In this document: piece after piece, positions 6,825 through 62,948 of the stretch
How the letters are laid out: each line of letters begins with the position of its first letter
Numbering within the stretch: position 1 is the stretch's first letter
Assembly (NCBI GenBank): GCA_016196295.1
Contig: JACPYA010000027.1
Location: 2,075 to 66,074 of the forward strand
Length of the DNA stretch: 64,000 bases
Source of the DNA: Candidatus Peregrinibacteria bacterium
Lineage (GTDB): Bacteria; Patescibacteriota; Gracilibacteria; Peribacterales; Peribacteraceae
Direction of reading: 5' to 3'
Position numbers and translations under genes: made by a program
The notes under the pieces: generated by a model
Told to the model about the DNA's origin: nothing
Database searches by the model: none
Seen by the model: only the letters and a program-made list of their open reading frames with translations

Positions 6825-8603
6825 ATGCTTCCTCGTATTTTATCTCCGCCATACTTCGTTCCCTCAGTACACGTGCGCATCTTTTCTTGGATCCGAGCTC
6901 ACAAGTGGCTGACTGCGATCATCATCGTGGCGCTGCTCATTATAGGCGGCATCGTCGCGGCAGTCGCGAGTCCGAACCCGCCCGAATACGTGACGGCATT
7001 CGTCGAGCGCGGTGATCTGCGTCAGACCGTGGAGGGGATCGGCACGGTGATCTCGGAGCGCGATCTCGCGCTGCAATTTCCTCGTTCAGGTGTCGTCGAT
7101 GTCGTGCTTGTAAAAGAAGGAGACATCGTGAAGGCGGGGCAAACCCTCGCGCGGCTGCGTGCGGGCAGCGAAGCTGCCGACGTCGCCTCGGCGGCCGCTC
7201 GGCTCGCATCGGCCGAGGCCGACTTGCGTGCGCTCCGGGAGGGGAATCGTCCCGAGGACATCGCCATCGCCGAGGCGCAGCTGGAAAACAGCCGCGCGCA
7301 GCTCGCCTCCGCTCGTGAATCTCTGGAAACGGCGGAAGAGAGCCTTCGTTCTTCCCAGGAACAAATGGAAGCCTTGGAATCCGAAGCGGACATCAACGCT
7401 TCCGGTGAGCGCGCCGTCGCGATGAGTTCCATTGCTTCGGAGATCGCGGCGGGGGAGTCCGCGCTCTCGTCCGTCGAGACCGTGTGGGACGATCCCAATG
7501 TGCAAGACGCCGTGATCAAGTCCGAACCCGCGCAATATGACCGCGTGCGCCAGCAGATCGGCGGGGCTCGCACGCTGCTTCAACATGCGCGCGATGCCGC
7601 AACGACGTGGAATGATCCAACCAGTGCGGCGCAGGAAGCGCGCCGAGCGCTCGCTGCGACCTCCGACGTCGTGCGTCTTGCCTTCGACACGGTGAGCGCT
7701 CTCCCGATCACCGCCTACTTCACCGACGCCAAGAAAGAGCAGCATAAGACGTCGCTCGCTAACGCGCGCGCAAGTACGGAGAATGCGATTCGTGGCGTGG
7801 AAGGGGCCGTGAAGAGCTTGCGGGACGCTTCAGCGTCCTACGACACACGCATCACGTCCGAAGAGTCGGCTCTGCGCAATGCCGAAGGAGCGCGCGACAA
7901 AGCGCTCGCGGACATCCGCACCTTCGAAGCGGCCCTCCGAACGGAGCAAGCACAGCTCGACCTCACGCGTGCAGGTTCCCGTCCCAGCGACATCGCGGCG
8001 GCGGAAGCCCGCGTGCGCGAACAGCGCGCGGCGGTCGCGAGAGCATCCGCCTCGTACCGCGACATGGTGCTGACGGCTCCCATCGACGGGACGGTGACGG
8101 ATGTCGCTGCAAAGATCGGCGAGTTCACGCCCTCGGGCCCCTTCCTTACGATGCTCGGCGACACGCCGTACCGCATCGAGCTCTTCACGTCCGAGATCGA
8201 CATTCCGAAAGTACGCCTCACGCAGTCGGGCTCGGTCGAGCTCGATGCGTTCCCGGATGTGCACTACAAGCTGCGCGTCAGCGAGATCGATCCCGCGGCG
8301 ACCGATCGAGACGGCGTGCCCAAGTATCGCGTGAAGCTCGACTTCGTCTACCCGCACGATGAATTCAAAGTCGGCATGACCGGCGACGCGGAGATCATCA
8401 CGGGAGAGCGCATCAATGTCATCAGCGTGCCCCGCCGCGGCGTGCTGCGCGGCGAGACTGGCGATTACGTGCGCGTATTGCAAGACGATGGGGCCGTCGT
8501 CGAGAAGCCGGTCCGCATCGGGATGGAAGGGGAGACGGGCAACGTGGAAATGTTGAGCGGCATTGCCGAAGGCGAAACCGTCATCCTCCTCATTAAAGAA
8601 TGA
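6825..8603 (+). CDS. efflux transporter periplasmic adaptor (HlyD/MacA family) with very long Ala-rich coiled coil
   Basis: N-terminal TM (WLTAIIIVALLIIGGIVAAV), VKEGDIVKAGQTLARL, LTAPIDGTVTDVAAKIGEF and a C-terminal beta-barrel. First gene of an operon with the MacB-type ATPase and permeases. Alternative starts at 6714 and 6873. Confidence 0.75.
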   Translation: MLPRILSPPYFVPSVHVRIFSWIRAHKWLTAIIIVALLIIGGIVAAVASPNPPEYVTAFVERGDLRQTVEGIGTVISERDLALQFPRSGVVDVVLVKEGDIVKAGQTLARLRAGSEAADVASAAARLASAEADLRALREGNRPEDIAIAEAQLENSRAQLASARESLETAEESLRSSQEQMEALESEADINASGERAVAMSSIASEIAAGESALSSVETVWDDPNVQDAVIKSEPAQYDRVRQQIGGARTLLQHARDAATTWNDPTSAAQEARRALAATSDVVRLAFDTVSALPITAYFTDAKKEQHKTSLANARASTENAIRGVEGAVKSLRDASASYDTRITSEESALRNAEGARDKALADIRTFEAALRTEQAQLDLTRAGSRPSDIAAAEARVREQRAAVARASASYRDMVLTAPIDGTVTDVAAKIGEFTPSGPFLTMLGDTPYRIELFTSEIDIPKVRLTQSGSVELDAFPDVHYKLRVSEIDPAATDRDGVPKYRVKLDFVYPHDEFKVGMTGDAEIITGERINVISVPRRGVLRGETGDYVRVLQDDGAVVEKPVRIGMEGETGNVEMLSGIAEGETVILLIKE

Positions 8604-8672
8604 ATGAATGTTGAATATTGAATGTAGGAAATTCCAATATTCAACATTCCACATTCAACATTCTGCATTCAT
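8601..8672. repeat. inverted heptamer arrays: (ATGTTGA-like)x4 / (TCAACAT-like)x4-5, with a 15-bp perfect stem 8606-8620 / 8635-8649
   Basis: Read directly. It fills the gap from the adaptor stop codon (TGA 8601-8603) to the ATPase ATG (8675). Confidence 0.9.
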
Positions 8673-8674
8673 CC

Positions 8675-9406
8675 ATGCCTCAGATTCCACTCATGCAAAC
8701 CCGCGGCCTCCACAAGTCTTATTTCAACGACGGACTCGAGACACCCGTCCTCTTCGACGTGAACCTCGTCATCGAGAAAGGAGAATTCGTCGCGATCATG
8801 GGGCCCTCCGGTTCCGGCAAATCCACCCTCATGCACATCCTCGGCTTCCTCGATCATCATACGAAGGGGGAGTACCTCTTCCAGGGTGAGCCGACGCAGC
8901 GCATGACGGACGATGCCCTGGCAAAGATCCGCGCGACGCGCGTGAGCTTCGTCTTTCAAGCATTCAATTTGCTGCCGCGGACGACCGTCCTCGGAAATGT
9001 CATGCTCCCGCTCCTGTACCACCCGACGATTCCGCCGAGCGAACGCCATGATCGAGCGCTCAAGGCGATCGAGACCGTCGGCCTCATGGATCGCAAAGAT
9101 TTTTACAGCAGCCAGCTCTCCGGCGGCCAGAAGCAGCGCGTCGCGATCGCGCGTGCGCTCGTGACGGAGCCGGACGTGATTTTCGCCGACGAGCCGACCG
9201 GGAACCTGGATTCAGCCTCCGGCATTCAAGTGATGGAAGCCCTCCAGACCCTCCACGATCACGGTCATACGATCATCCTCGTGACGCACGAGAAGACGAC
9301 CGCGGAGCACGCGGAGCGGATCATCCGCATCAAAGACGGGCGCATCGAGTCCGATACGAAAGAATTCAAGCGCGTGATCGCCACGAAGAATGCTTCCCTT
9401 AAGTAA
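8675..9406 (+). CDS. ABC transporter ATP-binding protein (MacB/LolD type)
   Basis: Walker [11 protein letters not shown], signature [15 protein letters not shown], Walker [12 protein letters not shown]. Confidence 0.9.
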
Positions 9407-9515
9407 CCATGGCTACATGGACTCATTGTTACATTGTTCGCAGGCGATTCGCCGAGTGCTTTCTGTATCAATCATATCTACGATGCTTTGCTAACAATGT
9501 AACCATGTAACAATG
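9404..9515. repeat. inverted octamer arrays: (CATnGnTA)x4 ... 46-nt spacer ... (GTAACAAT)x3
   Basis: The left arm begins at the ATPase stop (TAA 9404-9406). The right arm ends in the permease start codon (aacaATG, 9513). Inner stem 9429-9442 / 9489-9502 has one mismatch. Confidence 0.9.
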
Positions 9516-61338: not shown

Positions 61339-61388
61339 GCTTTCATCATGATTTCCTATTCTGGCATTAGAAACGCATCAAGAACGTA

Positions 61389-62888
61389 CTATTGATTCGG
61401 GACTTGAAAAATTCCCTCACCGAAGCCAAAAAACACGTTCTTAACCGCTGTGGAGTTGTAGCCGATGGAGCCCTTCTCGCTGCGGACTTTCTCGACGACC
61501 GCTTTTCCGTCCGCACCCGCATTGTTCGCGATGTGCATGGTCGGAGCGGTCAGCGCGTTCTTGACGATCTGGACGCCGATTTTCTCGTCGGCATGTTCCA
61601 CCTTCAATTTTTCCAGTGCTTCGATGGCGCGGATGTAGGCCGTGCCTCCGCCCGGGACGATTCCTTCTTCGGCGGCCGCGCGCGTCGCGGACACGGCATC
61701 TTCGACTCTGTGTTGCTTCTCCTTCTGTTCGACCTCCGTCGCGGCACCCACTTTGATGACGGCGACGCCTCCACTCAGCTTTGCCAGGCGTTCCTGGAGC
61801 TTCTCGCGGTCGAAGTCGGACTTCGTCGTTTCGACCTGCGCTTTGATCTCCTTGATGCGCGCCTCGATGTCGCTCTTGTTGCCACCGCCATCGACGATCA
61901 GCGTGTCATCCTTCGTTGAGACGACGCGGCGAGCAGTGCCGAGGTCTTCGATCGTCGCGTTCTCGAGCTTCAAGCCCACTTCCTCGGAGATGACGCGGCC
62001 TCCCGTAAGGATCGCGATGTCGCGCAGTATTTCTTTCCTGCGATCGCCGAAGGCCGGGGCCTTCACCGCGAGCGCGTTGAACGTTCCGCGGAGTTTGTTC
62101 ACCACGAGCGTCGCAAGCGCTTCGCCCTCGACGTTCTCGGCGATGATGACGATCTCCTTGCGTCCTTTTTGGGCAACTTGCTCCAGCAGGGGGAGAATTT
62201 CTTGAATCGAAGAAATCTTCTTATCCGTGATCAAGATGTACGGATGCTCGAAGATCGCTTTCATGCTCTGAGGATCCGTTACGAAATAGGCGGAGATGTA
62301 GCCTTGGTCGAACTGCATTCCCTCGACGAATTCCTTCTCGATACCGAGCGTCTGCCCGGCTTCCACCGTCACGACGCCGTCCTTGCCGACCTCATCGATC
62401 ACTTCCGCGATCACGCCGCCGATCTCGGCATCCTGCGCGGAGATGGTCGCGATGGCTGCGTACTCCTCTTTTTTGGAGATCACTTTCTTCTGCGCTTCCA
62501 GGTGCTTGCTCACGGCATCGACCGCCTTGAGAATCCCATTCTTGATTGAGATCGCATTCTTACCGGAGCCGAGGTGTTTCAATCCTTCTTGCATGATGGC
62601 GTGCGCAAGGACCGTCGCGGTCGTCGTCCCGTCACCGGCGGCATCATTCGTTTTCGTCGCGGCTTCCTTCACGAGCTGTGCGCCCATGTTTTCGAAAGGA
62701 TCCGGCAGTTCGATTTCCTTCGCGACGGACACGCCGTCCTTTGTCACCGTCGGACCGCCATATTTCTTATCGATGCCGACATTGCGGCCGAGCGGACCCA
62801 TGGTCGCGGAAACCGCCTGTGCCAGTTTTGCGACGCCTTTCAGGAGCTTGTCGCGCGCGTCATTTCCGAAGAGCAGTTGTTTTGCCAT
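61389..62888 (-). CDS. groL: chaperonin GroEL, apparently truncated at the C-terminus (~50 residues missing)
   Basis: Collinear with GroEL from [12 protein letters not shown] through [13 protein letters not shown] and [13 protein letters not shown] to ...GSIGYNS. It then diverges ([15 protein letters not shown]) and stops. There is no DPxKVTRSALQNAAS helix and no Gly/Met tail. Confidence 0.85.
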
Positions 62889-62893
62889 AGTTT

Positions 62894-62948
62894 TTAGGGT
62901 GAGGGATAGGATTAGGGCCCCGAAGGGGCCCCTTTGGGGCTAGGACTG
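62894..62948. repeat. G-rich TAGGG-type repeat plus two GC hairpins in the groES-groEL spacer
   Basis: TTAGGGTGAGGGATAGGATTAGGG, then GGGCCCC-gaa-GGGGCCC and GCCCC-ttt-GGGGC. It fills the whole intercistronic gap. Confidence 0.8.

Follow-up and report, generated by a model that had tools for sequence, protein, structure and literature searches.

Intergenic hairpins with mirror-image arms of short tandem repeats in a genome of Candidatus Peregrinibacteria

Results

Genes and repeat elements of the window

We studied a 64-kb stretch of the genome of a Candidatus Peregrinibacteria bacterium (contig JACPYA010000027.1, positions 2,075 to 66,074), called "the window" below. Most of its short intergenic gaps are taken up by a hairpin in which each arm repeats a unit of 6-9 bases as the mirror image of the other arm. 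The GC content of the window is about 58%, and its coding frames are recognizable by GC3 > GC1 > GC2. Pfam and NCBIfam cover most of the genes and were used to name them. There are 29 intergenic gaps, which are AT-rich and make up 5.8 kb (9% of the window); genes take up the remaining 58 kb. They include a series with an order that is conserved in relatives: the gene of an fn3 protein, a small open reading frame (ORF), holA, a 127-aa ORF, greA, carB (39446-42802, minus strand) and, further along, EamA, sortase and mnmA genes.

The closest relatives of the CarB protein come from metagenome-assembled genomes (MAGs) of Candidatus Peribacteria, Peribacteraceae and Peregrinibacteria, with 70-79% identity. 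For HolA, the identity to the two nearest other sequences is no more than 72% and 69%. No relatives closer than about 70% protein identity were present in the sequence collections searched. The source lineage appears from such comparisons to be a sparsely sampled bacterium of the candidate phyla radiation (CPR). Our census of elements covers the window and contigs of relatives, the loci of which are designated by L and a number.

An initial annotation of the window had described at least 12 gaps with inverted tandem arrays. We searched the window with an inverted-repeat and repeat finder and with Tandem Repeats Finder (TRF) and folded every gap with RNAfold. Inverted pairs of short-period arrays were found at 11 of the 12 loci listed (E1-E11 in Table 1). 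The twelfth, 62894-62948, dropped out: it is one-sided, with no complementary array, and its sense (minus) strand has a G-free CCCTAA-like leader ahead of groEL. TRF reported periods of 6, 7, 8 and 9 and 2.7-5.3 copies at all 11 elements, with period scores of 0.6-1.0. The elements have AT-rich stems of 20-35 bp, and A and C predominate in their 3' arms.

The 64 kb contain at least seven types of unit, with periods of 6-9. The description of the units as locus-specific is right only in part: the octamer unit CATTGYTA / TAACAATG is common to four loci (E2, E4, E6 and E10), TAGGGC is common to two, and two others recur in relatives.

The arms lie 0-8 nt from a stop or start codon at most junctions, and at a number of them they include the codon, as had been proposed. 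The arms of E1 take in TGA 8601-8603 and the AT of ATG at 8675; the last unit of E2 contains the start codon of the MacB permease (ATG 9513); the first and last nonamers of E5 overlap both stops of the convergent genes (TAG 38179-38181 in the first). The carB and sortase stop codons are within arms of E7 and E9, respectively, and the start codons of mnmA and DUF2157 both abut the arms of E10. According to the gene map, seven elements are at co-directional, three at convergent and one at divergent junctions, so all three kinds of placement named in the initial annotation do occur.

Individual elements vary in detail. The two arms of E1 have unequal copy numbers (3.5 and 5 units). E2 has a unique loop of 46-60 nt, and E3 has a nearly perfect core of 16-21 bp. 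There is a TATAGT box between E4 and the holA start. E8 adjoins a canonical terminator (44810-44836).

Table 1. Repeat elements of the window and repeat units found at loci of relatives
Feature	Position	Structure and units	Location	Fold z
E1	8600-8676	heptamer palindrome; 5' arm (GAATRTT)n, 3' arm (AAYATTC)n	entire gap from HlyD-like gene (stop 8601-8603) to ABC ATPase gene (start 8675)	-6.4
E2	9408-9515	octamer family; 5' arm CATGGCTA/CATTGTTA, 3' arm TAACAATG/TAACCATG		-2.6
E3	34251-34332	nonamer palindrome GTAAnGAAn / nTTCnTTAC	convergent junction	-5.8
E4	37070-37161	octamer family	upstream of holA	
E5	38180-38259	nonamer palindrome AGGTTTATT / AATAAACCT, four units per arm	between convergent holA and 127-aa genes	-3.9
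E6	38651-38749	octamer family	between greA and 127-aa gene (both minus strand)	
E7	39367-39448	hexamer palindrome (TAGGGC)n / (GCCCTA)n	carB-greA junction	-4.6
CarB insert	40995-41089	palindrome with 23-bp arms; encodes 32 aa, PPSPTLPPEEEGGSQSGKQSPSSRGGGARGGG	inter-domain linker of CarB (minus strand)	
E8	44838-44898	heptamer palindrome nnnGTAG / CTACnnn	abuts EamA gene stop	-7.6
E9	46101-46182	hexamer palindrome, TAGGGC / CCCTAR family	sortase gene to tRNA-Leu	
E10	48708-48821	octamer family	divergent mnmA / DUF2157 junction	-3.1
E11	54653-54747	heptamer palindrome; degenerate GTTTTTC 5' arm, perfect (AACGAAA)x4.3 3' arm	rve integrase gene to purF	-3.0
One-sided array	62894-62948	not an inverted array; direct TTAGGG/TGAGGG/ATAGGA/TTAGGG and a separate GC hairpin (GGGCCCC...GGGGCCC)		+0.1
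L001		units GATTGCG, GGATAGC, TGGTTAT		
L003		units AATGTAG, AATTGTTA		
L022		units GTAACTn, three copies		
L081		units ATTGGAG		
L083		units GTAAGGA		
L085		units ACGTATT		

Comparison with shuffled sequences and genes

We used a strict finder, which accepts ungapped inverted repeats with arms of at least 14 nt, complementarity of at least 78% and a loop of at most 90 nt, together with a periodicity filter. It detected nine inverted repeats in the 29 gaps, seven of them with periodic arms. In 100 dinucleotide shuffles of the gaps the mean numbers were 0.20 inverted repeats (maximum 2) and 0.01 periodic ones (maximum 1). The 58 kb of genes contained six inverted repeats, none of which was periodic. 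The word CATTGYTA occurs 12 times in the window, compared with 1.3 expected occurrences, and 11 of the 12 are inside the four octamer elements.

The z-score of RNA folding is between -3.0 and -7.6 for seven elements and between -2.0 and -2.6 for three. It is only -0.5 at 38643-38755, the E6 region with its long loop; the weaker values go with loops of 45-60 nt. The mean z-score of 150 genic 100-mers, taken as a control, is -0.05 (standard deviation 0.92). The architecture shared by the elements is far above chance and confined to gaps.

Elements in related genomes

Loci of relatives from independent assemblies (NCBI, ENA, JGI and Logan) carry the inverted-array design as well (Table 1). The same architecture in independent assemblies means that we are not dealing with an assembly artifact. 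Few or no elements were found in L011, L002, L004 and L084 (12-23 kb each), thus their density varies among Peribacteria. The conserved gene order makes the junctions comparable between genomes.

In L082, whose HolA is 69% identical to that of the window, the octamer family is present at both junctions orthologous to those of E4 (L082 1-97) and E6 (L082 1621-1736). In the latter pair the arms are 80-85% identical and the loop is 54% identical, with a shuffle baseline of about 50%. The orthologue of E7 (L082 2298-2431) has GGGTTA / TAACCC units. For the three junctions together, gapped global alignment gave 59-85% identity of arms, 42-54% of loops and 45-54% of shuffles. Because the chance baseline of global pairwise alignment is high for low-complexity arms (about 0.5), we keep the claim of arm conservation modest: between the window and L082 it appears clear at E6 and slight at the other junctions.

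At deeper divergence (L083-L085) the orthologous junction has another unit, a one-sided array or nothing. In particular, L085 has ACGTATT units at a junction that carries the octamer in the window. The convergent junction of E3 has its orthologue at L083 1326-1467, with two GC-stem hairpins instead of the element; the second of them is flanked by A and T runs. One-sided direct arrays at orthologous junctions of L083 (5822-5863 and 6413-6516) and L084 (3175-3287) consist of TAGCTTT (four copies), GACACGGAG (three copies) and an 18-mer, AAAGGAGGGAAAGGAGTC (two copies); arrays thus can occur without an inverted partner. Conversely, some units recur at non-orthologous junctions of different genomes. 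The GTAAGGA family is found in E3 (34251) and at L083 5312-5425, and GAATGTA in E1 (8600) and at L003 9850. The comparison of relatives, which had been suggested as a check, thus shows the architecture to be shared with relatives, in some cases with one and the same unit family at orthologous junctions.

The in-frame copy in CarB

In an alignment of CarB proteins, a linker insert between the two synthetase halves is seen in the window, L001, L003, L083 and L085. It is shorter in L084 and L022, and there is none in L011, L002 and L004. The homologous inserts read EAMSFERLAVSL...AAQSSKLKAQSY in L001, EEAMSDERLANE...SRSPLTANR in L083 and ...ESSKLKADR in L085. The DNA that encodes these three inserts consists of inverted heptamer arrays. 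Tandem-heptamer palindromes are located at the site of the window insert in carB of L001, L003, L083 and L085; in L001 and L003 the finder matches fall inside carB, and the ORF is still open. The units are mirrored on both arms: AGCTnTG / CAAAGCT in L001, AGCGATG / CACCGCT in L083 and a mixture in L085.

The insert of the window itself is non-periodic. On the coding strand it is C-rich and then G-rich, and the order of its arms is the opposite one. The palindrome has a folding energy of about -76 kcal/mol for a 138-nt segment.

Slippage and co-evolution of arms

Slippage, one of the origins considered in the initial annotation, clearly acts on the arrays. This is supported by perfect arms that face degenerate partners and by duplicated blocks of variant units. 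In E11 the match is 100% over 4.3 copies (54710-54739). Perfect 3' arms are also found in relatives: AGCTCAA is repeated four times in carB of L001 and AACCCT five times in L082. In L003, variant units are duplicated in blocks (CATTTTA twice and then CATTCTA twice; AGCGGGA AGCGACA as a pair, twice). Polymerase slippage has also been proposed for the excess of heptamer simple-sequence repeats (SSRs) (PMC4692102).

The arms change together. Between carB and greA the units are GGGCTA / TAGCCC in the window but GGGTTA / TAACCC in L082, so that the switch of the unit in one arm is mirrored in the other. Therefore the arms are not independent over long times. Their matching could result from selected pairing or from template-switch copying. 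Template switching between the arms of an inverted repeat is known to create, homogenize and expand hairpins (PMC8794818, PMC13100816).

We compared the folding of both strands for 16 co-directional or intragenic elements. The antisense RNA is more stable in 12 of them and the sense RNA in four; all four carB inserts fold worse in the sense orientation. The idea that the sense RNA would be better folded through G·U pairs is thus not borne out, and there is no sign of selection on G·U pairing in sense RNA. The lack of a strand preference fits a symmetric process at the DNA level.

Arm order and translation signals

In the Peribacteria set, G exceeds C in the 5' arm of 17 of the 20 periodic elements (p = 0.003). 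Non-periodic inverted repeats have no such bias (18 vs 13). In a mixed metagenomic sample, the 5' arm has more G than C in 27 of 38 elements (27 vs 11, p = 0.014), a count that includes 12 octamer-type elements. We also tried a rule of a keto-rich (G+T) 5' arm. It holds for 19 of 20 elements in Peribacteria, but the ratio is 10 vs 17 in the metagenomic contigs, and only the G>C rule was kept.

The octamer topology ATTGTT...AACAAT is invariant, including 12 of 12 further metagenomic elements, which were found by a one-arm pattern. A fixed polarity of the octamer relative to transcription was rejected as trivial: X...rc(X) is identical on both strands, and therefore only the identity of the 5' word is informative. 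The metagenomic loci with such palindromes are L086-L088, L095, L098, L099, L116, L124, L131, L140 and L144, and the GC content of their contigs is 33-56%. In L131 (6715-6998) the octamer palindrome is between the complex I genes nuoH and nuoL. CPR bacteria are known to lack complex I. Because of these two genes the L131 contig is probably not from a CPR bacterium. L144 has several other tandem-unit palindromes in 14 kb.

The order of arms affects potential start codons. The triplets ATG, GTG and TTG occur at 0.094 per nt in 5' arms and at 0.027 per nt in 3' arms, i.e., they are 3.5 times rarer in the latter. Taken singly, 14 elements have the higher rate in their 5' arm and one has the lower rate there. 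Selection of 5' arms for stop codons in all frames was considered and is not supported, with stop triplets counted as 8 vs 7.

By a loose test, only 8 of the 43 gene starts in the window have a Shine-Dalgarno (SD) motif. The leaders of the window genes are poor in G and rich in C and T (G 0.19, C 0.30). In several genes, for example those at 17648 (-), 47351 (-), 57871 (-) and 37210 (+), a TATAAT-like box precedes the start by 7-13 nt. Similar boxes precede the orthologous small ORF in L081 and L083-L085. Boxes so close to the start suggest that leaderless mRNAs or mRNAs with very short leaders exist in this lineage. The arm order may then act as a filter, in that only palindromes with a G-poor, start-free arm before the next gene would be tolerated.

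Other features of the window

The window has several further features. Three stretches (18464-18883, 28016-28573 and 33166-33702) are unusually long (420-558 nt) for such a compact genome and contain no convincing ORF and no Rfam match at the gathering score; they could be sites of unannotated small genes or RNAs. The Rfam 15 scan of the window gave only two tRNAs at the gathering score, and the sub-threshold matches were spurious hairpins resembling miRNA precursors. The gene at 13925-16627 (+) encodes a protein of 900 aa, in which RTX calcium-binding repeats are combined with seven repeats of DUF4215 and a SpaA-like domain. The gene has 27/54-nt tandem DNA repeats at 14310-14496, which are coding and unrelated to the intergenic arrays. 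At 60862-60896, 3' of the gene of an 849-aa protein, a GC-rich hairpin that resembles a terminator, CCCCTTCGCGGGCGCGGA, is duplicated exactly and in tandem (18 nt x 1.9). The rve-family integrase gene with a helix-turn-helix domain (54811-55890, minus strand) is directly upstream of E11, with a further GC hairpin between them, and may be a remnant of an insertion sequence.

Discussion

Origin of the elements

We tentatively regard the elements as quasi-palindromes derived from SSRs, similar to the short tandemly repeated repetitive (STRR) arrays of cyanobacteria; slippage and template switching would make our elements, which would be tolerated or used as boundary hairpins. We put the probability of this explanation at roughly 40%. 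A short seed beside a gene end would grow into a tandem array by replication slippage. Intrastrand template switching would then copy the array as its reverse complement and later keep the arms matched (quasipalindrome correction). The outcome would be a hairpin of mirror-image arrays around an unconstrained loop. It would persist only where it is harmless, i.e., where it fits exactly from stop to start or lies in a tolerant protein linker.

With the G-rich arm first and the G-poor arm second, the sequence before the next start would be nearly free of ATG, GTG and TTG. A start-free 3' arm would matter because most starts in this genome are without SD sites. Transcribed elements would form long AT-rich hairpins at gene boundaries, and these may protect and insulate the transcript at 3' ends and between cistrons. 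At junctions inside operons the hairpin would draw the stop and the next start together.

Several points weigh against this explanation. Folding gives no advantage to the sense strand, and this speaks against selection for pairing in the sense RNA. Neutral concerted evolution leaves the divergence of the unit consensus unslowed, yet the window and L082 have kept in common the octamer unit and even variants of it such as CATGGCTA. This retention and the invariant topology hint at a sequence-specific constraint or a trans-acting reader. The mirrored unit switches could equally be explained by selection for pairing. A hairpin that ends at an SD-less start should hinder initiation unless it is melted. 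Finally, the topology rule in its keto-rich form fails in the mixed metagenomic sample, and the support for its G>C form in that sample counts in the octamer-type elements.

Similarity to known repeats

The initial annotation knew of no described element class with this design. However, there are close precedents, namely the inverted GGGAATC arrays of Xanthomonas (PMC4692102) and the STRR hairpins of cyanobacteria (PMC2670836). Our elements resemble these little-studied repeat hairpins and are not a wholly new kind.

According to Rehm et al. 2015 (PMC4692102), the GGGAATC SSRs of Xanthomonas and the GGGGAYT SSRs of Nostoc/Anabaena have 2-26 copies, mostly about four, and about 90% of them are intergenic and near ORF ends. 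In Xanthomonas, 70-75 of about 185 repeat sites per genome are paired, convergent and capable of forming a stem-loop. The arrays are kept between the same genes in related species, their length and sequence vary, and their function is given as unknown. The elements described here are similar in that they consist of tandem, partly degenerate units, are intergenic and near ORF ends and are retained at junctions with variation. The convergent orientation, with a G-rich array 5' on each strand, and the ability to form stem-loops are common features too (here 17 of 20 elements, with z-scores down to -7.6), and the TAGGGC/TTAGGG family is also rich in G tracts. Unlike Xanthomonas, which has one dominant unit with G-quadruplex potential, the window has at least seven units, mostly AT-rich and with no such potential. 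Nearly all of its short-period intergenic arrays are paired, compared with about 40% of the sites in Xanthomonas. The whole gap between stop and start is filled by the arms, and the elements belong to a CPR bacterium with a reduced genome. The passages of PMC4692102 consulted do not report unit switches mirrored on both arms or a copy in frame in CarB for Xanthomonas.

Cyanobacterial STRR sequences are 7-bp tandem repeats. One of them forms a hairpin between hupS and hupL, for which a role in transcript stability or translational coupling has been proposed (PMC2670836). Like our elements, they are short tandem units in intergenic DNA that fold into a hairpin. Unlike our elements, STRR sequences belong to a few genome-wide families of filamentous cyanobacteria, and many of the arrays are one-sided. 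Vioque reportedly described in 1997 an STRR in helix P12 of RNase P RNA, with closely related strains said to carry unrelated units at the same rnpB site, and this pattern is parallel to the observation of "same junction, different unit" made here. We know of no systematic stop-to-start fit and of no conserved in-frame coding copies among STRR sequences.

Direct TAACTGA heptamers have been described in Beggiatoaceae, cyanobacteria and Bacteroidetes (MacGregor 2015, PMC4679880). They also come as 2-6 heptamers, nearly all of them in intergenic DNA, that end a few nt from a start, in genomes or junctions with few SD sites, and a post-transcriptional role was proposed for them. They differ in having one unit, 169 direct sets vs one inverted set and no predicted secondary structure. 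Rickettsia palindromic elements (RPE) and intragenic repetitive extragenic palindromic (REP) sequences resemble the CarB insert in that a palindrome is in frame at a tolerant site of a protein (PMC3733652). RPE are dispersed conserved families found in many genes, unlike the single intragenic site seen here, where the unit evolves in concert. Quasipalindrome template-switch mutagenesis (PMC8794818, PMC13100816) copies multi-base changes from arm to arm. It is a mutational process and not an element class, and we infer its action here from the mirrored unit switches, not from an event-by-event reconstruction. No report of such elements in CPR bacteria was found in the literature searched.

Alternative explanations

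The elements may instead be cis-regulatory arrays that are read by a nucleic-acid-binding protein: either one cold-shock or S1-type domain per 6-8-nt unit, or a DNA-binding protein on the octamer or TAGGG. The binding would control the hairpin, the downstream translation or the fate of the transcript. We consider this unlikely, though it accounts for the best conserved features. The octamer unit, its variants and the inner boundary ATTGTTCGCAAGCG are conserved in the window, L082 and L003, and the loops are not. Across metagenomic contigs that differ widely in GC content, one of them with complex I genes, the ATTGTT...AACAAT topology shows no exception. Cold-shock domains have a footprint of about 7 nt and a preference for T and G. 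The period of 6-9 nt and the G/T-rich 5' arms fit such a footprint, and a cold-shock protein was also considered for the TAACTGA repeats (PMC4679880). One-sided arrays in leaders, such as the groEL leader (62894-62918) and L083 5822-5863, would suit a reader as well. However, a reader would face at least seven unit types in 64 kb, the unit of a junction changes over deeper divergence (ACGTATT in L085), and a period of 8 bp does not suit a protein that binds double-stranded DNA. We identified no candidate protein, and it is not obvious what the conserved copy within carB would regulate. Still, the retention of the octamer sequence and the invariant arm order are incompletely explained by slippage and template switching and leave room for a sequence-specific reader.

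Another improbable explanation is that the elements are the transcription terminators of this lineage or are selected purely for RNA pairing as 3' stabilizers, the periodicity being incidental. The hairpins are strong; E3, E5 and L081 2161-2221 are at convergent junctions without another hairpin; and in L083 GC-stem terminator-like hairpins are found in place of E3. Cyanobacterial STRR hairpins have been proposed to be transcript stabilizers or terminators (PMC2670836). However, the window has separate canonical terminators with a GC stem and a T tract (16628-16670, about 12240-12288 and 44810-44836). The arrays have no T tracts, and their A/T polarity is opposite to that of bidirectional terminators. 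None was reported by a terminator scan, which removes canonical terminators from the roles listed in the initial annotation. Intrinsic terminators have a short GC-rich stem, a loop of 3-8 nt and a U tract, unlike the elements. Several elements are inside operons (between the ATPase and permease genes of macA-macB) or at a divergent junction, and a homologous series is part of the carB coding frame, in which a terminator would be lethal. The absence of a sense-strand folding advantage argues against selection for RNA pairing. Promoter clusters, another of the listed roles, are not supported either; a promoter scan found no sigma-70-like promoter in the element loops.

It is rather doubtful that the elements form a gene-boundary device of bacteria with SD-less starts and leaderless mRNAs. 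In such a device the G/U-rich 5' arm would abut the upstream stop, the G-free 3' arm would be the leader of the next gene, and the stem would bring the next start beside the stop. The stem would be opened, and reinitiation licensed, by a ribosome that terminates or by a protein that binds single strands unit by unit, such as a cold-shock protein on the 5' arm, and the device would renew itself by slippage and template switching. It would explain why the unit changes and the architecture, the topology and the in-frame CarB copy persist.

REP-like elements, including bacterial interspersed mosaic elements (BIME) and REPIN, are associated with REP-associated tyrosine transposases (RAYT; PMC3733652; see also PMC3116915 and PMC8266576). 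Our elements could be such non-autonomous mobile elements, spread by RAYT-type (IS200-like Y1) transposases and only secondarily RNA hairpins, but the chances of this are low. The window encodes two RAYT-like ORFs, both with HUH and Y..NP.KAG motifs. In the ORF at 515-1642 (-), the N-terminal domain reaches 109 bits with the NCBIfam model NF047646, "REP-associated tyrosine transposase", for which the cutoff is 80, and it also matches TnpAREP of E. coli (4ER8); the ORF at 5279-5980 (+) scores 74 bits, just under the cutoff. GTAAGGA and GAATGTA recur at non-orthologous loci, as mentioned above, and GTAG/CTAC is present in several units. Extragenic placement at co-directional and convergent junctions, inverted dimers with variable spacers of 20-100 bp, ends that provide stop codons and occasional copies in frame within genes are properties of REP sequences (PMC3733652).

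Thus the initial annotation rightly noted a resemblance to REP/BIME in placement and not in construction. REP sequences are high-copy palindromic units of 20-40 bp with a GTAG/CGTC tag, and our units are non-palindromic words of 6-9 nt in tandem, without a constant tag and mostly in low copy in the window. No array adjoins either RAYT-like gene. The ORF at 5279-5980 is bracketed by its own inverted GC-rich hairpins GTGGCACGGGC-N5-GCCCGTG (5301-5323 and 5951-5973), which are unrelated to the arrays and found nowhere else in the window. Its homologues are at most 60% identical, and the few named ones come from Sumerlaeota, Planctomycetes and similar phyla. The RAYT-like domain of 515-1642 has 18 homologues, none of them close. 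The suggestion that the elements are RAYT substrates, made in the initial annotation, therefore fares poorly after checks against NCBIfam, PDB and two protein searches: one of the two genes has hairpins of its own, and there are no close homologues in Peribacteria. Moreover, loops within one family are unrelated, orthologous junctions have kept their elements, and a non-exhaustive inspection by eye revealed no target-site duplications. The loops of the four octamer elements and of their L082 orthologues do not align, as would be needed for a miniature inverted-repeat transposable element or a foldback transposon.

Both RAYT-like genes have features of their own. The ORF at 5279-5980 lies in a low-GC3 stretch, has the classical REP-RAYT-REP layout and was probably acquired horizontally. 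In the ORF at 515-1642 the RAYT-like domain at the N-terminus is fused to an RdgB/Ham1 NTP pyrophosphatase at the C-terminus. All homologues of the RAYT-like domain are shorter (123-234 aa), and none appears to be fused to RdgB. Its RAYT part contains a near-perfect 38-nt palindrome, GAAATCGTAGGGCCGAAAT/ATTTCGGCCCTACGGATTC (1323-1360), at the place where the protein has nine residues more than 4ER8.

An explanation by chance low-complexity sequence or faulty assembly has virtually nothing in its favor except the AT-rich low-complexity look of the gaps, and it is refuted by the shuffle controls and by orthologous elements in independent assemblies.

Significance

CPR genomes are very small and tightly packed, and the signals of gene expression in this lineage are almost unknown. 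Roughly a third of the intergenic gaps of the window hold the hairpins described here, which is a major share of the non-coding DNA in a compact CPR genome. To the class of STRR sequences and heptamer SSRs the elements add co-switching of whole units in both arms, a fixed arm order that keeps potential starts away from the next gene, and a homologous in-frame copy in an essential enzyme, CarB, across several species. In practice, the elements can mislead gene callers, because their arms contain stops and starts, and complicate the assembly of CPR MAGs. If they do arise by slippage and template switching, they would be a natural system for watching how replication errors make and maintain hairpins. 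If they couple neighboring genes or serve as binding sites, they may give an insight into the translation of operons without SD sites.

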